63,072 bases of DNA, filler included, from Reclinomonas americana ATCC 50394 (GCA_048213135.1; 3 parts of 2 records of this genome joined end to end with filler, not necessarily neighbours in it), one strand, 5' to 3'; positions 13,401 through 36,210 are shown, counted from the whole stretch's first letter. Numbers and translations are program-made. Notes: generated from the sequence alone by a model not told the origin.

Positions 13401-14448
13401 AAAGAGAGTGCCAGGCGTGAGAAGGACAAGGAGCAAGGCGCAGAAGAGAAAACTTCTCTGAACGAGAAGCTGCCAGCCAATGAGAATGCCACAACTGAAG
13501 AGAGACAAGGAGCAAGGCACCAAAGCGATACAACACTTGGTTGAAGAAGGGAGGAACGAGAAACCGCCAGACAAAGAGAATGCCGCACGTGAGGAGAGTC
13601 AAGGGCAAGAAACGGAAGGGCCACAGCTCGCCGAAAGGAGACAGACAAAGAGAATACAAGGTGAGAGAGACAAGGAGCAGGAAGCAGTGGAGATGACGAG
13701 AAGCCGCCAGACAAGAGAATGCCGCAGGCGAGGAGGTCGAGGACAAGACTTAAAAGGGCACTGTTGCACGGAGAGTCATGCCAACCCTCAAACTGAGAGA
13801 AGAGACCGAGGAGACGCTCCCCATCCCTCCCCTCCAGCAAACACCCTTCTCCCACCCTTCCTCCCTCCTCCTCCTTACCAATCGTCGGCGTGTACTTTGA
13901 CGAGAAGCTATGCTCCGTGTACTGCCTCACAATCGAGGTCTTCCCGGTCGCCGGCGCCCCCACCACTAAAATCTTCAACACAAACTCCGACACCGGCATG
14001 AGCTCGCCCGGCGCCAACTGCATCTGCGCCTGCCCCGCCGACGTTGTCAACGAGGCCGCTGCGGCCGAGGCCGTGTTCGCCCCCGCCAAGTTGCTGCTGC
14101 TGTGACTGTGACTGTGACTGGCCAGAGAGGAGGAGGAGATGCCGCTCACGGGTGCTGCACTGGCTGCGGTGGTTGCGGAGGAGGCGGAGGAGGATGACGA
14201 TTGCGCGGTCGTGGAATTCGCGGTCGTCGATGAGTTGCCATCTGCTGTGCGCAAATCGTGTGAGAGAACTGTGCGTGCGCGTGCGTGCGTGTGTCACCAC
14301 AAGAGCGCGTGTGTGTGTGTGTGTGACCACACTTTGGTCGTCTCATTTTTTTGCTCTCTCTTTCTTTTCTCGCGCGACGGCGCTGCTCACCTCCACCGCC
14401 TTTTCTAAACGCGCGTGTGAGCTTGTTATAGAGACCGGCCAGCGACAT
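10404..14448 (-). CDS. Atypical Rab/Ras-superfamily GTPase-like protein with long N- and C-terminal extensions
   Basis: MSLAGLYNKLTRAFRKGGG|..., LKILVVGAPATGKTS (G1), YTPTIG (G2), QFWDIPYPE (degenerate G3), VLVGNKFD (G4), FLSAKTG (G5). The downstream helical exons to the stop at 10404 are assigned with less certainty. Confidence 0.8.
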
Positions 14449-14533
14449 GATAGAGAGGCCGAGTTGAAGCCAAAGGTGCAAGTCGGTCCATTGCCGCTCT
14501 GATCACTTTGCATCAATTCGACCCATCGCTCTC

Positions 14534-16322
14534 ATGCGCGCTCTTGTTGTGTTTGCGCTCCTTGTCGTGGCGCTGCTGGCGAGCAATGCCGCGGCGCAGT
14601 GCGGATCGTGCCCGACGACGTCGGTGGCCACAGATGCGGCCACTGCATGCAGCTATGATTTCAACACGCTGATCACGAACTTGGCGCAGGAGAATGAGGG
14701 TGCGTGAGTGATAAGCGAAGAGGGGGAGGAAGAAGAGCAGTGCTGTGTGTGCGTGTGTGAGTGGGAGGAAGAAGGAGTGAGTGACAGGAGAGAAAAGAGG
14801 GGTGCGAGAAGAGAGCATCTTGTCTTGTGCATTGTGCCGTGCTCTGCGTCGCTTGTGTTCTTGCGTGCCTGTGATCAAGGAGTGCTCTTCTGTTCATTTC
14901 TCTGTATCCGGTGTGCGAGAAGCACTTTCCTCTTGATTTTTCTCTTTGTTGACGTTCTTCGTCTCCTCTGCGCACAGGCTGCACTCTGGGTGTGTACACT
15001 GACACCACTGGCCACGCGACGATTGGATACGGATTCAACGTTGCGACTCTTGTCAAGCACTACTTCCCTGCCATCCTCTCACACATTGGTACCGATACCA
15101 CAAACCACACAGCTTGTGCAATCTGGGGCGGACAGCATTCTCTCGCAGGCCGGCATCACCAATGTGTCTGTCAATGATCTTATCAATGGAGCTTGCCTGT
15201 CTCCCTCGCAGGCCACTGCCATTCTCTGTTGCGATTTCTTTCTCTCGCAGCTAACATTTACACTTGACCTTACCTTTTCTGTCGCCAGCCGTCGAGCTTG
15301 GCCAGGCCATTTCGTGCGCGCAGGGACTCGCCACCAGCTGGAGCTCTCTCCCCGTCACCGCCCAGGCTGTCATGACTGATATGGTGCGTCATGTCGGTCA
15401 CACGCATTCACCTCGTCAAGAGACTCATTGTTTTCTTGCCACAGTCGTTCAACCTCGGCTGCGGTGCGCCCTCATTTGCCACACACACACGCACACATAC
15501 TTGCACACACACACATACATACACACACACATACGCTTCCGTCTCTCTCTTCCTTCCCTCTCCTGCCTCTCACATTCCCCCTCTCCACAGGCGGCTTCTC
15601 GAGCTTCACCAACACTCTGGCCAACATCAACTCTGGCAACTGGTCTGGCGCCGTTGCGGGCATGATGAACAGCCTGTGGTGCTCGCAGGTGGGCACTCGC
15701 TGCACTCGCGATGCGGCGCTCATGGCCGACTCGGCGTCTTGCGGTGGCGGCGGCAGCGGTTCCAGCGGCTCGACGGGCTCTGGCTCCGGCAATTGTGACC
15801 CGAACTGCGCCAGCTTCTCCGGCTCCTCCGGCTGCGGCTGCAGCGCCTGCTCCGCCGGCTACTACGTCGACCAGGATGGTGTGACGTGCGACCAGTGCAC
15901 CACCGACCCGAACTGCGCGCAGGTCGGCCAGCTGTGCTCAGGCAACGGTGACACGGAGAACCAGTGCAGCTCGTGCGCCAGCGGCTACTCTGTCGATCAG
16001 GACGGTGTCACCTGCGACAGCGAGAGCTACGAGCAGGGTATGTTGTCGCGCAATCCACCCTATTGTGTCCGCTGCGGGCGTTTCTCACCGTAAACCTCCG
16101 CTTGCAGTTCCGGGCAGCAACAACAACAACAACAACTCTGGCAACTCTCGCACGCTGACGATTGTGCTGTCGACCGTCTTCTCGGTGGTCGGTGCTGCCG
16201 CAATCGCCATCTTGATCGTGCTGGTCATTCGCCACCGTCGCCGTCGTGCGCAGTCGCCGACGGAGATGGAGCTGCCGTCTCACGACAGCAGTGTCACCTA
16301 TGCGCGCATGTCGCAAGCGTGA
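14534..16322 (+). CDS. Membrane-anchored T4-type (GH24) lysozyme, copy A: signal peptide, lysozyme, one Cys-rich module, TM, cytoplasmic tail
   Basis: Spliced MRALVVFALLVVALLASNAAAQ...ENE|GCTLGVYTDTTGHATIGYGFN has the E-x8-D-x5-T spacing of T4 lysozyme. AVMTDM|SFNLGC|GGFSSFTNTLANINSGNWSGAVAGMMNSLWCSQVGTRCTR matches the T4 C-lobe pattern. TM is TLTIVLSTVFSVVGAAAIAILIVLVI, then RHRRRR and VTYARM. Confidence 0.85.
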
Positions 16323-16441
16323 GAACATTCTTTTATGTTCCACACAACTTGAGCCGCTGCAACGCAGCCGATTGTACCCTTACGACTTGATCGGTCCATT
16401 GCCCGTCTGAACACATCGCTTCAATTCGACCCATCGTTCTC

Positions 16442-18752
16442 ATGCGCGCTCTTGTTGTGTTTGCGCTCCTTGTCGTGGCGCTGCTGGCGAGCAATGCCGC
16501 GGCGCAGTGTGGATCGTGCCCGACGACGTCGGTGGCCACAGATGCGGCCACTGCATGCAGCTATGATTTCAACACACTGATCACGAACTTGGCGCAGGAG
16601 AATGAGGGTGCGTGAGTGATAAGCGAAGAGAGGGAGAGAAGAGCTGTGTGTGCGTGTGTGAGTGGGAGGAAGAAGGAGTGACGACACTTTGATGGGGGTT
16701 CAATTGGGTGAGAGAGTGGTTCAAAGTGTGTTTGTCTATCTTCTCTCTCGCGCGCTCTCTCTCTTCTCGTCTGTGCACGTGCGCGTGTGTGCATGTATGC
16801 GTGAGATGCGAGTGTGTGCGAGAAGAAGAGTGCGCATCTTGTCAGTCACACATAATTTTTTGTGCGCCTCTTCTGCTCATGTCACGCGCGCACACACACG
16901 CGCTCTCCTCTGCTTGCGCATGTGCGCCACTCTTGTGCGTGCGCGCTGCTCTCTCATCACGCATGATGCCCATGTCACATTTTTAGACTGAGCGCGAGAA
17001 GTTTTTTCTCATTGCGTTCTTCGTCTCCTCTGCGCACCAGGCTGCACCCTGGGTGTGTACACTGACACTACTGGTCATGCGACGATTGGATACGGATTCA
17101 ACGTTGCGACATGAATTTTTTTATTGTTCTCTCCAGCACAATCCATTTATTGACTGCTGGTGGATGATGATGATGATCGCAGCTCGTGCAATCCGGCGCC
17201 GATAGCATTCTCTCGCAGGCTGGCATCACCAATGTGTCTGTCAATGATCTTATCAATGGAGCTTGCCTGTCGCCCTCGCAGGCCACTGCCATTCTCTGTT
17301 GCGATTACTTTCTCTTGCAGCTAACATTTACACTTGATCTTACCTTTTCTGTTGCCAGCCGTCGAGCTTGGCCAGGCCATCTCGTGCGCGCAGGGACTCG
17401 CCACCAGCTGGAGCTCTCTCCCCGTCACCGCCCAGGCTGTCATGACTGATATGGTGCGTCATGTCGGTCACACGCATTCACTTGGTCAAGAGACTGACCG
17501 TTTTTCTCATTCCACGCAGTCCTTCAACCTCGGCTGCGGTGCGCCCTCACTTGCCACACACACATACACACCAAAAGAACCCACCCACACACGCAAACGC
17601 ACCACGCACACACACAAACACACCACACACAAAAGCACACCACACTTTCTCTCTCTCACACACACACTCACTCGCTTCCGTCTCCCTCTCACCACCCTTC
17701 CCTCTCCACACTCCCCCTCTCCACAGGCGGCTTCTCGAGCTTTACCAACACGCTGTCGAACATCAACTCTGGCAACTGGTCTGGCGCCGTGTCGGGCATG
17801 ATGAACAGCCTGTGGTGCTCGCAGGTCGGCAACCGCTGCACTCGTGACTCGGCTCTCATGGCCGATTCGGCGTACTGCGGTGGCGGTGGTGGCAGCGGCA
17901 GTAGCAGTGGCAGCGGCTCCGGCTCCAGCGGCTCGGGCTCTGGCTCGACCCAGTGCGACCCGAACTGCGCCACCTTCTCCAGCTCCACCGGCTGTGGCTG
18001 CAGCGCCTGCTCTGCTGGCTACTACGTCGACCAGGATGGCGTGACGTGCGACCAGTGCACCACCGACCCGAACTGCGCGCAGGTCGGTCAGCTGTGCTCG
18101 GGCAACGGCGACACGGAGAACCAGTGCAGCTCGTGCGCCAGCGGCTACTCGCTTGATTCGGATGGCGTCGACTGCGACTCGAGCAGCAGCGGCTCGACGG
18201 GCTCTGGCTCCGGCAACTGCGACCCGAACTGCGCCACCTTCACCGGCGCGACTGGCTGCGGCTGCAGCGCGTGCGCTGCCGGCTACTACGTCGACCAGGA
18301 TGGCGTGACGTGCGATCAGTGCACCACCGACCCGAACTGCACTCAGGTGGGCCAGCTGTGCTCCGGCAATGGTGACACCGAGAACCAGTGCAGCTCGTGC
18401 GCCAGCGGTTACACCGTCGACCAGGACGGCGTCGACTGCGACAGCGAGAGCTACGAGCAGGGTATGCCACTCACGAACTCACTTCTTCCTTGTCGCTGCT
18501 CTTGTGCTGTGCTCAACCTTCCCCTCCCCTGCAGTGCCGGGCAGCAGCAACAACAACAACAACTCTGGCAACTCGCGCACGCTGACGATTGTGCTGTCGA
18601 CGGTGTTCTCGGTGATTGGTGTTGCCGCCCTCGCCATCTTGGTGGTGCTGGTGATGCGCCAGCGTCGCCGCCGCGCTCAGGCGCCGGCGGACATGGAGCT
18701 GCCGACTCACGACAGCCGTGTCACCTATGCGCGCATGCAGGTGCAGGCTTGA
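16442..18752 (+). CDS. Membrane-anchored T4-type (GH24) lysozyme, copy B, with two Cys-rich modules
   Basis: Exons are near-identical to copy A with the same intron positions. The CDPNC...DGVxCD module occurs twice (about 17954-18177 and 18218-18442). Ends VTYARMQVQA*. Confidence 0.85.
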
Positions 18753-30720: not shown

Positions 30721-33700
30721 ATGTCTGTGAGTTTGATTGTGTGGGGGACGCTTGTTGTTCGCACGCTTCTCTCTGTCTCTCATTCATCGCTTGTCGCTCG
30801 CTGTCCTTGTTTGTGCACAGTTTTCCGTGCATGTTAGTGCAGCGCATGATTCATCGCTGTCGGTGGTGGTGGAAGGAATGACGGGCACGACGACTCTCGC
30901 AGAGTTGCTTCGCGAGGCCACTCGCTTGCTGCGTGTAAAGAGTGGAGATGTGGAGTTGGATATTGTGGGGGTGGAGAAGCCAGTGGAGTACGACTTGGAG
31001 GATGCGAGTGTGCTGAAGCTGAAATCTCTGAGAATCAAACCGAACACGGATGTTGTTGTCAGCATGATGACAAGCGCAGCTCCGCTGGAAGGGAGGTGCA
31101 TGTGTGTGCGTGCGCGTGTGTGTGTGAGAGAGAGAGAGCTTATGTACGTGCTTGTCGCAATTGATTGACTGTTGTGCATGCACGTAGGAAGCGCCCCGCA
31201 GAGGGTTCTGCGCGTGACGCGCCACCTCTCAAGCGACAAAATACACTTGCACATGTGAGTTGCGCCAGTGACGAGCCGGCGTCGGCAACACCAATGGAAG
31301 AGGATGGCGACACCCCAGCGTCGACCACTGGCAGTGCAGCCGCACCGAGCGAGGATTCTTCGTCGTCAGAGGTGGTTCGTGGCGCAGTAGTCATTGATTT
31401 CTGTTCTCATTCTAGTGCGTGCTTCATGTCTTGTTGCACGCGTCCACTGCGCTCGTACGTCGTGTGAGTGTCTTTGTCACGCCTTCTTGATCGTCTGATT
31501 GAGAAAGCGCCTCTTTCTTTGTGTGGCATTTCCGCCAAGGTTGCCTACCATGCTGCAGTGTTGTTGCTCACTCGTGTACTCTCGCACACATAGTTTGCTG
31601 TGGAGGTCAGCGCTGGCGTTTCAACCGTGGGTCATTCCGTATCCGTGCTCGTAAGCGAACTTCGCTCGACCAGCACCGTCGGCACCTTGCTCGACCGTGC
31701 CCTTGTGGCTTTGCGGAGCCTGACGCACTGTGACAAACTGAAGATTATCGAGGTATTGCCACCGCTGAAGCTCCCGCTTGGAAAAAAGAAGAAAGCATCC
31801 ACTCGCCGAACGCAACTCGCTGCCGCGGGGATTATTGCAAACACGATAGTGATGGTGGTGGTCAAAGGGTTCGTACGCACGTGCATAAGCCATTGTGCTT
31901 CCTGTGATTTTACCTCTCTGACGCCGCGAGTAGGGTCACTGCAGAATCGCTGTCTCCGCCGCCTTCGGAGCCGATGCCAACAGAACCAGAGGGAGAGGCA
32001 TCCGGATCTGGACTGTCTGCGGAGCGGCGGTCAGTTTTCTATCTTCCCCTGCCAGCGTGTCACCGCACTGACACCCGACTGCAGGGTTATCAATTTCAAC
32101 CGCATGTACGCAGCCTGTGAGGTGGTGGAGGAGGCCGTGCGTCTTCGCTGTCAACGCGCTCTGGCGCAGTTCAGTCGCGATCATCCAGCCTTTGATGTGC
32201 GGGCGTGGGTACCGAGTTTCAAGCCCGTTGGCATGGATGCGGCAGCTGTAGAGGAGTGGCGTGCACGGCATGCTCCACTCCACCCTTCTCGAGTCAAGAT
32301 ATTCGAGGAAAAACGCCGGGCGATGTTGAAATGGCGGCGCGCTTTCGACGCGGACCCCTCATCTGACCCTTCTTGTGACGGATTCGACACAACGGCACTC
32401 CATTCAATAATGATGTATGGTGGCTTTGTCGAAGATGACGGTCGCAAGCTGCTGCTGATTGACAATGCTGACGAGCGGAAGGCCGTGGAGGAGCTGCGTG
32501 ACGTAAGAAATGAGATGGCGCACAAGGACTTCGCGTTGACCGACATCATTGTACAACGATACCTTGCTATAGACGGTGTCTTACTCGCCACTCTCTCTCG
32601 ATTGCAGTTGACGGCTGACGAGCGTGCTCGATTCTCCGCTCGTGTTTGCGATGCTAGTCTTGTAGACGTTTATATCAGTACATATTCAGTGCGACTTCAG
32701 CGACTGGCTGTGCGCGAGCTCTCATTCTACCAGCACGAAGAGAGTGTGCGCAAGGACTTGCAGATGTATGTGCCACTGCTGTGCTCTCGTGAGCGTGACG
32801 TCTCGTCGAGAGACAAGATGACGGATCTACTGACGGAGGTGGATGTTTTCCTCGCCGACACCAACACCGCCGATCGTGTGTTGGTGCTCTTTGGTAACAG
32901 TGGAGCAGGCAAGACCACCACCATGTCGGTGCTGGCCGAGAGAGCATGGCGGCAGTGGCAGACGAGAGAGAACAGACGAGTGCCTGTGCGTGTGCCTCTT
33001 GGTGCACTGCGCAATGCCGATGGGCGCCTGTTGGAGGAGGCATTGGAGCGACTGTCCCCCGAGTTGGGACTGGAGTCGGATGTGCGACGGCTGAAAGAAG
33101 AGCCACTGCTTTTGTTACTTGACGGGTATGACGAGTTGTACCGAGGTGTGAATCTGTTTGTCAAGAATCAGCTGGATGTGTGTCGCGATGTTAAGGTGAT
33201 TATCACCTGTCGTGGCGATTATGCACTCACGGCATTGGGTGGCGTGACGCAGTATCGACGGTATTTTGCACCGGTGGATGCGCGGGGACAGCTGTGCATG
33301 CAGTGGTTGACGGAGCGACACCTAGCACCATTCAACAGGGAGCAGATTGAGGAGTACATTGAGCGACTGGTACAAGTGGGTGGTAATGTCGATGGCGGTG
33401 AGGTGCGATGGTCGACTGCCGAGGAGTACATTCGTGCATTGAAGAGTGTACACGGACTGGACGCACTGGTGTCGAATCCGTTCCTGCTGACAGTGGTGGC
33501 TCGTGTGTTGCCACAGTTGGTGGCGAGTGGTGTGCAGCGGCCGACTCGGTGCGATGTGTTTGACCGATTCACTCGACAGTGGATTGTGAGAGAGCAGGAG
33601 AGACAAGCGAAACTCGGTGCGGAGCGTGTACCGGGTGAGGAGACATGTCTCTCATTCTGTGAGGGACTGGCACGGTTGATGCATGAGAAGAATGTGGTGC

Positions 33701-36210
33701 GTGCGTCTGTGACGGAGAGTCTGTCAGGTGGTGTAGAGGAGGATGACTTTGGTGGTGCGCCAATCGCCTTGCGACGAGTGGAGAAGGGACCGTTTGACAA
33801 GCTCCTCGGCCACAAGAACCAGCATGTGCGAGTGTGCTGTCCGATTGTGCGACGGTATGGGACGACGCAGTGGGGATTCGTGCATCTGTCGTTACTGGAG
33901 CACTGTGTGGCACGACATGTATTTGCATGGGAGACGTGGGACGAGGAGAGGAAATTGACGATGCAAGACGTGCAAAAGCATGTGCTGGGAGTGCGATTGT
34001 TGAACGACAGACCATCGTTGGTGGAACAGATGGCCGAGGTGGTGCGACGGTCTCCCAAGTTGCAAGCGAGACTCTGGGAGGTGATTTATTTGTCACGGGA
34101 GGTGGATGAGGAGCGATTGGTGACGGCCGCCGCGAATGCAGCGACAGTGTTGTGTGTGGCACAAGTGTCGTTCAGTGGGCGAGATCTGTCGGGAGTGCGA
34201 GTGAGGGGTGCGGATTTAAGGGATGCGGTGATGCACAGGACGGTGTGGAGGGGAGCGGATTTGCGAGGGGTGAATGTGTGCATGGCGTATGCGAGGGAGG
34301 CGGATTTCAGAGGGGCGAATATCACTGGTGTTGTGTGGCCGAGAACGCCAATGAAAGGGCATACAGGCACTGTTCGATGTGTTGCAGTTTCATCTTGTGG
34401 ACAACAAATTGCCGGTGGTTCCACAAACGGAGTGTTGGAGATGTGGCCGATAGCTGGCGAAGGAGGTTTTCGCATCACTGCGTTTTCGTCTGCCGTCGAG
34501 TCCGTTGCAATTTCTCCTGACAGCAAATATGTCGTTGGAGGGGCCGCGGATGGTTCTGTTTGTATCTGGTCAGTGGCCTCGAATCTTGAAACATGTGTGC
34601 AGCAATCGGTTGATTCAAATGCACCCGTAATGTCGATTGCAGTAACTCGTGACGGTTTGTTCGTCGTGTGTGGCATCGACGACAGTACTGTGCGCGTGTT
34701 TACGCTTATGGATGGCACCGAGCAGTGGTGTTTTTGTGACCATCTCAGTGGTGTGCTGGCTGTGACATCCACTTACGACAGCACATTGGCGGTAAGTGGC
34801 AGTCGTGACAAGACAGTTCGAGTGTGGTCGCTGATTACTGGAGCAAGAATGCGGTGTGTTTCTGGTCATGAGGGCCCGATTCGATCTGTTGCAACAGCCG
34901 CCGATGATCGTTGGATTGTCAGCAGCAGTGATGACGGCACGGTACGCACGTGGTCTCTCACTAGTGGAGAGCAGTTGCGACTCTTCAAGTTTGACACGAA
35001 GCAAAATGTGAGGTCCACCGTCGCCGTGTTGTCTGACGGCAACCACATTGCATGTGGGTGGTTTGATCACTCTGTGCGAGTGTTTTCTCTCATTTCGAGT
35101 TGTGAGGTCTTCCGATTTGACGGACACCTGGATGAAGTGTGTGCTGTATCAGCTGCGCCTAACGGACTGATTGCCAGCTGCAGTCATGACCAGACAATTC
35201 GTCTTTGGTCTATTAACGACCATGAACATGCGCGACGACTCGGTGGACATGGGACTGGAGTTCGATGCGTTGCATGCGGAATGACCCCTTTCGGGGCGCT
35301 TGCTGTCACCGGTGGCAACAATTCATATCTCCGGGTTTGGCTGATTGACACTGGCGAGGAACTGAATGCTTATCATGGGCACTCGGATTCCGTAAATGCT
35401 GTGGCATTCGTTGTTGTGAACGACGAGGTTCGATGTGTGAGCTGTGGAGATGATTGGACACTGTGGTCTCCAACTGATGCCTCGATATTATGGAAAAACT
35501 ATAGTCATCACGGCGAGGTGACAGCGCTGGCGGTTACCCCAGGTGGTTGTCATGTTTACAGCAGTTGTCGGGACGGACTTGTGCGTTTGCTGTCGCTGGA
35601 GAACGGCGATGTTGTTAGCAAGCTGGAAGGGCATTGCGGAGCCGTTGACGTGGTGGCAGTGAGCGCTGACGGGCAATTTGTAGTTTCCGGCGGCGTGGAT
35701 CGGGCGGTGCGTGTGTGGCGATGTGACTCTGGGGATGAGGTGCATCAACTTGTTGGCCACACTGCAAGAGTCACATGTGTGACGATTTCGAGTGATTGCC
35801 AGCATGTGGTCAGTGGCGCACGAGACAATACTGTGCGTGTGTGGTCTGTAACGAGTGGCAAACAAATTCGTCTGTTCAATGGGCACACAGCCACAGTTAT
35901 AGCTTTGTCGATATCCACAGATGACCTTCATGTTGTTAGTCGCGATACTACCGGTGTGGTGAATCGGTGGGGACTGCATAAGGGAAAGAAAGCTGCGGGC
36001 CACCCCGGTGATGAGATTTTTGCAAATTGTATCTGTGCTCTCGAGGCATCAGATCTTGTCCTTGGCATTACTTTCAGCAGGCAGGTCGTGGTTGTGAAAT
36101 CAACAACCGGATTCGTTGATCGAGTGCTGGGGTCTGTGTTTCCAGATATTATGAAGACCCAAATGTCCAATCTTGCATGGCCACGAGCACACATCATGGC
36201 CACAGACTGA
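30721..36210 (+). CDS. NLR-like STAND protein, copy 1: two ubiquitin-like domains, HEPN-like, NACHT, pentapeptide, about 13 WD40
   Basis: Start ATGTCT|gtgagt. FDTTAL...VEELRDVRNEMAH; Walker A GNSGAGKTT; Walker B LLLLDGYDE; VIITCR; NPFLL; FVHLSLLEH; GADLRDAVM...GADLRG; GH...W repeats. Confidence 0.88.

Follow-up and report, generated by a model that had tools for sequence, protein, structure and literature searches.

Tandem T4-type lysozyme genes of Reclinomonas americana predicted to encode stalked, type-I membrane-tethered muramidases

Introduction

Few enzymes have been studied as thoroughly as the GH24 lysozymes, whose soluble forms occur in phagotrophic protists, fungi and bivalves. T4 lysozyme (gene e, GH24, PF00959) hydrolyses the bond between N-acetylmuramic acid and N-acetylglucosamine (MurNAc-GlcNAc) of peptidoglycan. 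Here, we describe a tandem pair of spliced genes at positions 14534-18752 (+ strand) of a 63,072-nucleotide stretch of DNA, filler included, from Reclinomonas americana ATCC 50394 (GCA_048213135.1), which we call the window. The new element at this locus is a GH24 muramidase in a predicted type-I, stalked and tail-sorted format that is shared by a handful of unannotated environmental relatives; its reading as a membrane-tethered lysozyme is well supported by the sequence.

The window proteins have the catalytic domain in common with T4 lysozyme, on which the modelled fold of P0002, one of the environmental relatives, superposes with a TM-score of 0.72-0.77. However, T4 lysozyme is soluble, resides in the cytoplasm and has 164 residues, whereas the window proteins add a signal peptide, ten cysteines in the domain, a linker, a stalk, a transmembrane segment (TM) and a predicted cytosolic tail, and their genes are eukaryotic and rich in introns.

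Among eukaryotes, Dictyostelium possesses the soluble GH24 lysozyme lyT4-2, which is induced on bacteria (PMC2443395), Goniomonas avonlea has a secreted GH24 enzyme (PMC6260743), Entodinium caudatum has a GH24 lysozyme (PMC6925433), and the fungal GH24 enzyme of Trichophaea saccata carries an SH3-like wall-binding domain (PMC10394673). Phage-type lysozymes also occur in bivalves (PMC5303276), and soluble GH24 proteins are known or annotated in a pelagophyte (10.1101/2024.10.30.620910). Like the window genes, the secreted eukaryotic GH24 lysozymes have signal peptides and a link to the digestion of, or defence against, bacteria. However, none is described with a TM anchor in the accessible parts of these reports, and the word "transmembrane" was not found in the accessible part of the bivalve study (PMC5303276); the window genes add the stalk, the TM and the tail.

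The preliminary description of this locus, made from the sequence alone, had noted no known membrane-tethered form with a Cys-rich stalk. Our literature search, with supplementary files and subscription journals outside its coverage, likewise found none, nor any description of a natural eukaryotic GH24 protein with a TM anchor. The term "membrane-bound lysozyme" led to bacterial entries, which from their titles and abstracts we take to concern the lysozyme inhibitor MliC, and to transgenes for a membrane form of hen egg lysozyme; neither represents a natural eukaryotic enzyme.

The T4-lysozyme family includes the signal-anchor-release (SAR) endolysins of P1 and phage 21. Phage SAR endolysins are muramidases held on a membrane, as the window proteins are predicted to be, in their case through an N-terminal, releasable helix (PMC9239132). 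As far as the accessible part of that report describes it, the SAR tether is weakly hydrophobic and the enzyme is inactive until its release in the bacterial periplasm, whereas the window proteins have a signal peptide of the cleavable type (strongly hydrophobic, ending in AAA) and a C-terminal type-I anchor with a tail; an N-terminal SAR helix as the sole tether is absent from them. A second comparison concerns CPBF8 of Entamoeba histolytica, a transmembrane receptor that carries lysozymes to phagosomes (PMC3285589). Compared by layout only, from the accessible part of its description, CPBF8 resembles the window proteins in its signal peptide, its single TM near the C-terminus and its terminal YxxPhi motif. 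However, the lysozyme bound by CPBF8 is a separate, soluble protein from another family, whereas the window proteins would unite the enzyme and the "receptor" in one polypeptide.

The GH24 domain and its catalytic residues

Gene 1 (14534-16322, 372 residues) and gene 2 (16442-18752, 469 residues) lie head to tail on the + strand; the interval first proposed for the pair was exact, as 14534 is the first base of the gene 1 ATG and 18752 is the final base of the gene 2 stop codon. In a BLASTP comparison, T4 lysozyme (taken from AF158101) aligned over residues 3-148 with spliced gene 1 at 26% identity, 54 bits and an E value of 9e-14. In both genes, Glu55 (codons 14696-14698 and 16604-16606), Asp64 (15001-15003 and 17064-17066) and Thr70 (15019-15021 and 17082-17084) stand opposite Glu11, Asp20 and Thr26 of T4 lysozyme, and the E-x8-D-x5-T motif that had been reported for the domain is thus present. 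The Glu, Asp and Thr residues have established roles in T4 lysozyme catalysis. Additionally, Trp182, Gln185 and Arg189 align with Trp138, Gln141 and Arg145 of T4 lysozyme, and the start of exon 6, searched alone against the solved structures of the PDB, matched T4 lysozyme residues 110-149 best (E 0.036). With a profile built from 19 more distant relatives, the seven closest being omitted, the score was 199.7 bits for gene 1 and 126.6 bits for T4 lysozyme, and the best of 200 shuffled sequences reached 5.3 bits, so the match lies well outside what chance would give.

Single exons stayed below the Pfam cut-off of 22.3 bits for PF00959 because five introns interrupt the lysozyme domain: exon 2 reached 13 bits (profile positions 7-24), and nothing in any exon scored above the cut-off. 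In the relatives, PF00959 scored 34.4 bits in P0002 and 38.8 bits in P0004. The AlphaFold model of P0002 (alignment A1) had a mean predicted local distance difference test (pLDDT) score of 80.5, with values above 90 across the domain, and all of the 50 Foldseek matches listed for it were T4 lysozyme or T4-lysozyme fusions (E about 1e-7), with TM-scores of 0.69-0.77 on the stand-alone lysozyme chains among them. The HMMER and structure checks that had been suggested for this domain came out positive, by proxy, in the relatives. Taken together, the T4 lysozyme match, the profile score, and the Pfam and fold results of the relatives make the GH24 assignment secure. The mature GH24 part contains ten cysteines, which suits an oxidizing, non-cytosolic location for the predicted domain.

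The predicted type-I layout

Hydropathy analysis of the spliced proteins revealed two hydrophobic stretches only, one N-terminal and one near the C-terminus. The former, at residues 3-21 (peak 2.47), ends in AAA before Gln22 and reads heuristically as a signal peptide (14534-14596 in gene 1). The latter is a putative TM at residues 318-342 of gene 1 (16155-16229; peak 2.88) and 414-438 of gene 2 (18582-18656; peak 2.83), and is followed by RHRRRR and RQRRRR, respectively. These basic residues open C-terminal tails of 30 residues in gene 1 (16230-16319, stop codon 16320-16322) and 31 residues in gene 2 (18657-18749, stop codon 18750-18752), and both tails contain YARM, a motif of the YxxPhi type, seven or eight residues from the end (16299-16310 and 18726-18737).

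Between the GH24 domain and the TM, a Gly/Ser linker of 17 residues in gene 1 (15743-15793) or 25 residues in gene 2 (17879-17953) leads into a module of 75 residues with twelve cysteines, and an Asn-rich spacer precedes the TM. The Cys-rich module described previously was indeed present in both genes, with the addition that gene 1 has one copy (15794-16018) and gene 2 has two (17954-18178 and 18218-18442), the latter separated by a second Gly/Ser linker. The order of signal peptide, GH24 domain, Gly-Ser linker, Cys-rich module, TM, basic stop-transfer signal and short tail, as originally outlined, is borne out by the sequence in both genes.

The module was modelled as a chain of beta-hairpins with a pLDDT of 86.4. 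Its best match in VIA-align (wide) was TNFR1 with a Z score of 3.8, and the Pfam family cEGF (PF12662, cut-off 26.6 bits) gave 18.1 bits for gene 1 exon 6, 24.7 bits for the gene 2 modules in one comparison and 27.2 bits, for both modules taken together, in another, with no single stretch above the cut-off. In the ESM Atlas, VSP and Furin-like_2 look-alikes scored 0.82-0.89, below 0.9, and serve as leads only. We suggest that the module is a disulfide-rich and probably rod-like stalk of the EGF, furin or TNFR kind, without a family assignment. Whether the gene 1 module is a recombinant of the two gene 2 modules was also considered; its flanks resemble module 2 and its core is equidistant from both, which yields no clear chimera.

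Splice model and tandem duplication

The host sequence is eukaryotic nuclear DNA with a G+C content of about 56% and many assembly gaps. Gene models were assembled by joining the exons by coordinates in a script. Each gene consists of seven exons and six introns, the reading frames are open after splicing only, and all 12 introns are bounded by GT-AG, with GTGCGT, GTTGCG and GTATG as donors and CAG as every acceptor. Intron sizes range from 61 to 278 nucleotides in gene 1 and from 61 to 433 nucleotides in gene 2. Introns 2 and 3 of both genes start with the unusual donor GTTGCG (15040-15045, 15228-15233, 17103-17108 and 17298-17303), and GTGCG or GTATG opens the remaining introns. The GH24 part is interrupted by five of the six introns, and exon 5 is a microexon of 19 nucleotides; for this reason the domain appears only as stop-to-stop fragments in lists of open reading frames (ORFs), in agreement with the earlier remark that introns hide it from the ORF track. 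The same circumstance is a warning for the annotation of similar genes.

In gene 1, exon 1 (14534-14699) encodes the signal peptide, a Cys-bearing N-terminal stretch and the start of the GH24 domain up to Glu55, and exon 2 (14978-15039) encodes the beta-hairpin region with Asp64 and Thr70. Exon 3 (15113-15227), with the middle part of the domain, continues from exon 2 without a break in comparison with P0002 and P0004, and exon 4 (15289-15383) was placed by the splice model and by alignment to relatives. Exon 5 (15445-15463) carries the family-wide FNLG motif, whose counterparts N104 and G106 in P0002 are invariant or nearly so. Exon 6 (15591-16037) comprises the last third of the domain to 15742, including the Trp, Gln and Arg residues identified by BLASTP, as well as the linker and the module, and exon 7 (16108-16322) comprises the Asn-rich spacer, the TM and the tail. 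The corresponding exons of gene 2 are exon 1 (16442-16607), with the signal peptide and Glu55; exon 2 (17041-17102), with Asp64 and Thr70; exons 3 (17183-17297), 4 (17359-17453) and 5 (17520-17538, again a 19-nucleotide microexon), all three from the splice model; exon 6 (17727-18461), with the C-terminal third of the GH24 domain, both linkers and both modules; and exon 7 (18535-18752), with the Asn-rich spacer, the TM and the tail.

Spliced gene 1 shares 58% identity with P0002 over residues 45-204 (E 4.5e-55), 76% with the fragment P0001 and 48% with P0004. These alignments are free of gaps at each exon junction and therefore support the splice model of exons 1-6 independently. Retention of intron 6 in gene 1 would lead to a stop 18 codons on (16038-16093) and to a soluble product of lysozyme plus stalk (ORF 15380-16093), and a read-through of intron 6 in gene 2 meets no stop codon for a long stretch.

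That the two loci form a tandem pair, as first proposed, was verified by blastn and tblastn blocks and by alignment of their introns. The blastn blocks are 84-94% identical, with 94% between 14483-14780 and 16391-16681, and the identity per intron is 72-93%, with the lowest value in intron 6. The likeness extends through the introns and the upstream DNA, and the duplication was therefore fairly recent. A tblastn search of the window with the spliced protein found no locus beyond gene 1 and gene 2.

We examined selection between the paralogues by the Nei-Gojobori method. All 15 nucleotide differences in exons 1-5 (457 nucleotides) are synonymous, and the signal peptide and GH24 part together show 26 synonymous and five non-synonymous differences, which corresponds to a ratio of non-synonymous to synonymous change (omega) of 0.054. 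Omega is 0.16 for the linker and module, 0.37 for exon 7 and 0.16 for the whole gene, with a synonymous divergence (dS) of 0.255. This pattern indicates that both copies have been kept by selection in the proposed frame, the anchor exon included.

These data bear on the possibility that the anchor is an artefact of the gene model, that is, that the TM exon is unused or belongs to another transcript and the genes really produce soluble lysozymes ending in a Cys-rich tail. Cys-rich C-terminal extensions are frequent among the soluble relatives, and the joining of exon 6 to exon 7 rests on sequence rather than on transcripts. However, the GT/AG signals, the phase and the open frame through exon 7 are kept in both paralogues; exon 7 has an omega of 0.37 while intron 6 is only 72% identical; and P0001 and P0003 have a similar spacer, TM and RRRR, which come after the GH24 domain in a single ORF. 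We hold this to be the least likely of the explanations weighed here.

Selection on the head also speaks to its function. A receptor-like layout of head, Cys-rich stalk, TM and a tail with Tyr and Ser/Thr residues would be compatible with a peptidoglycan sensor, in which the GH24 head binds, the tail signals and catalysis is secondary or lost. However, all three catalytic residues and the Trp, Gln and Arg of the cleft are retained in a head with the lowest omega of the protein, and the tail has no recognizable signalling domain (Pfam on exon 7 gave nothing above the cut-off). We therefore regard a sensor as very improbable; an enzyme fits better with catalytic residues that are intact and subject to strong purifying selection.

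Relatives and phylogeny

Three protein searches yielded 72 relatives. Among them, a HMMER search of 1.84 billion representative sequences with gene 1 exon 6 gave 33 matches, of which 19 scored above the PF00959 cut-off, two scored slightly below it and 12 had no family, the latter being mostly fragments together with two proteins that matched the Cys module only. A search with the ORF around gene 1 exon 6 (lengths 130-415) returned nothing at E <= 0.001, the ESM Atlas gave no usable match with P0002, and no protein matching the window genes themselves was found in the two large protein collections searched.

A C-terminal TM follows the lysozyme domain in seven of the 72 relatives (P0001, P0002, P0003, P0012, P0034, P0035 and P0037), all of which are unannotated environmental sequences. 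The order of GH24 domain, spacer, similar TM and RRRR is common to P0001, P0002, P0003, P0034 and P0037, the C-terminal half of P0037 being that of P0034, and the Cys-poor P0021 likewise ends in hydrophobic stretches. P0002, P0034, P0001 and P0003 resemble the window genes in this order, with 58-76% identity in the domain, but P0001-P0003 and P0034 are without the twelve-Cys module; P0035 has a Cys-rich stretch before the TM too, but of another type (GGGxAC..RC). P0002 and P0034 each form one continuous ORF, on contigs of 946 and 913 nucleotides, respectively, and lysozyme and anchor are therefore read from a single uninterrupted stretch there. Moreover, the stretch before the TM, the TM and RRRR are visibly alike in P0001, P0003 and the window genes, so the anchor was inherited and is no local accident. 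These results qualify the initial suggestion that a form of this kind is undescribed: the literature search supports it, but the form is not unique to this genome, as the seven anchored relatives attest. The window pair and about six environmental relatives define a small family.

The tree comprised 28 rows, with fragments omitted and P0042-P0072 not included, and was rooted arbitrarily on T4 lysozyme. Gene 1, gene 2, P0002 and P0034 form a clade with support of 99/98. P0012 and P0035 are a second anchored pair (95/91), which adjoins P0009 and P0004, a fusion protein described below (93/91). The Cys-rich sequences group weakly (80/76) apart from the Cys-free ones, several of which have bacterial architectures with PG_binding_1, or with PAAR and a chitinase domain. 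Source names among the relatives include "GH24 family phage-related lysozyme", "lysozyme", two EukProt entries and "E [Symbiodinium sp. KB8]". The window genes thus appear to sit in a GH24 clade that is Cys-rich and apparently eukaryotic, with the type-I anchor as a rare variant. The preliminary description had taken them for a domesticated phage or bacterial muramidase, an origin that the data do not demonstrate; they fall in the weakly supported Cys-rich clade with EukProt and Symbiodinium members. With six spliceosomal introns, any transfer, in whichever direction, would have to be old. A transfer from phage or bacteria was considered, and no donor could be named because the forks below the Cys-rich clade are open and the root is arbitrary.

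A C-terminal TM is absent from all 31 proteins P0042-P0072, most of which consist of a signal peptide and a GH24 domain, often with a different Cys-rich C-terminal extension. Repeats of the form GGGxAC...RC make up this extension in P0035, P0042, P0045, P0053, P0055, P0059 and P0067. No Pfam family was found for it in the five proteins scanned (P0035, P0042, P0045, P0053 and P0055), and it could be an undescribed wall-binding or stalk module. Five proteins of about 320-335 residues (P0050, P0056, P0057, P0058 and P0060) have another Cys-rich C-terminal domain with the shared ending GGY.C....GGC.W, and the Pfam search of P0050, P0056 and P0058 found PF00959 only. In P0004 (391 residues) and P0042 (452 residues), the lysosomal thiol reductase GILT (PF03227) is fused to a Cys-rich GH24 domain; a secreted polypeptide that unites disulfide reductase and muramidase is a hint that the clade operates in a lysosomal setting.

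A scan of metagenome contigs with P0002 found two further eukaryote-like relatives only (L002 and L003) and did not return the contig of P0002 itself. L002 is a secreted GH24 protein of 173 residues, and L003 (2347-3111) consists of a signal peptide, a GH24 domain and a Pro-rich repeat with units of about eight residues that runs off the contig end. The opposite-strand neighbour of L003, recognized by eye, looks like a subunit of a eukaryotic trafficking complex.

A putative mechanism and its alternatives

Overall, after analyzing these data, we propose that the two genes encode type-I single-pass proteins with an active T4-type muramidase, tethered in endolysosomal or phagosomal membranes and sorted by their own tails. 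We put the probability of this reading at roughly 0.55. According to the proposal, the two recently duplicated nuclear genes would give rise to type-I proteins whose N-terminal GH24 head faces the lumen or the outside and, as in T4 lysozyme, would cleave the MurNAc-GlcNAc bond of peptidoglycan. The enzyme would stay tethered to the endolysosomal or phagosomal membrane and cycle via the cell surface, and its sorting would be governed by its own tail, with YARM as a YxxPhi-type signal, rather than by a separate hydrolase receptor. A stalk of one or two modules would hold the catalytic head some nanometres off the membrane, and the head may thereby reach the wall of an enclosed or attached bacterium.

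The predicted topology places the head in the lumen of the secretory or endocytic system or at the cell exterior. We lean toward an endolysosomal or phagosomal membrane by analogy, from the YARM tails, the tail of P0035, which ends in YERL, the GILT fusions and the layout of the Entamoeba receptor, and the evidence for this is thin. Several points weigh against the proposal. A strict YxxPhi motif is present in only three of the eight tails (gene 1, gene 2 and P0035); in P0002 and P0034 the Tyr is kept but the fourth position is not hydrophobic, and the tails of P0001, P0003 and P0012 lack Tyr altogether. The motif is also short, and by a rough estimate about one in four tails of 30 residues would hold one by chance. 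Phagotrophy of the host is assumed, and one relative comes from Symbiodinium, a photosynthetic dinoflagellate. In addition, the Pfam and fold results were obtained by proxy, from P0002 and other homologues; the exon 6-exon 7 join draws on splice signals, the reading frame and relatives; and the stalk module had no Foldseek match in the pdb set at E <= 1e-3, the best hits being DR5, megalin, R-spondin and netrin at E 0.08-0.3. Location and muramidase activity are predictions from sequence.

The same topology would allow a plasma-membrane enzyme that acts on touching bacteria, in prey capture or pre-digestion or in antibacterial defence, and does not reside in phagosomes or lysosomes. Type-I topology places the enzyme outside, the stalk is weakly matched by surface receptors (TNFR and the furin repeats of R-spondin) and by VSP and furin-like clusters, all of them leads only, and the photosynthetic dinoflagellate also has a relative. 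However, the GILT fusions in the clade point to lysosomes, and the tails carry a Tyr-based motif of the type that usually drives internalization. We consider a resident surface enzyme unlikely.

Another explanation is a membrane-bound precursor, in which the TM and the tail serve for sorting only and the linker is then cut to release a soluble lysozyme. Lysosomal acid phosphatase provides a precedent, as cleavage of its membrane-bound form yields the soluble enzyme. The cut could fall in the long Gly/Ser and Asn-rich linkers, which lie exposed; secreted, soluble proteins make up the majority of the relatives, with no C-terminal TM in any of P0042-P0072; and the product of gene 1 with intron 6 retained would be soluble as well. 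However, no recognizable cleavage site is present, and the constraint on the stalk and the TM exon, together with the duplication of the stalk in gene 2, is hard to explain for a part that is discarded. A clipped precursor therefore seems distinctly improbable, and the permanently tethered enzyme remains our preferred reading.

We speculate further that these genes represent a class of eukaryotic lysozymes not yet described, in which one chain combines a hydrolase and its sorting receptor and the muramidase, as a permanently tethered enzyme, is recycled together with the phagosome or endolysosome membrane, and that the copy number of the stalk sets the reach of the head; this extension is tentative, with odds clearly below even. 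If it were true, recycling with the membrane would let a small bacterivore keep its enzyme at egestion, and the number of modules, one or two, would adjust how well the head reaches the walls of different prey cells. The TM, RRRR and the C-terminal Tyr region found in common with relatives would then represent a conserved, receptor-free sorting route for lysosomal hydrolases. More generally, a real and active enzyme of this kind would give a eukaryote a way to send a wall-degrading enzyme to its bacteria-digesting compartment, or to display it at the surface, without a separate receptor.

Flanking sequence and neighbouring genes

A conserved block of about 55 nucleotides precedes the gene 1 ATG (14480-14533, + strand) and aligns with 16388-16441 before gene 2; it may be a shared 5′ untranslated region (UTR) or core promoter. 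The spacer from the gene 1 stop to the gene 2 ATG measures 119 nucleotides (16323-16441, + strand). This short interval must accommodate the gene 1 3′ end together with the gene 2 promoter and 5′ UTR, unless the pair is co-transcribed.

On the opposite strand, 756-2480 and 11419-14293 contain intron-split fragments of a P4-type phospholipid flippase (PhoLip_ATPase_N, E1-E2_ATPase) and of a Ras/Rab-like GTPase. Downstream of the pair, 31594-47592 (+ strand) holds very long ORFs rich in WD40 repeats (31594-36210, 36155-38059 and 39726-43892) and a NACHT NTPase domain in 45388-47592, and this region looks like a cluster of NACHT/WD40 genes of the STAND type.

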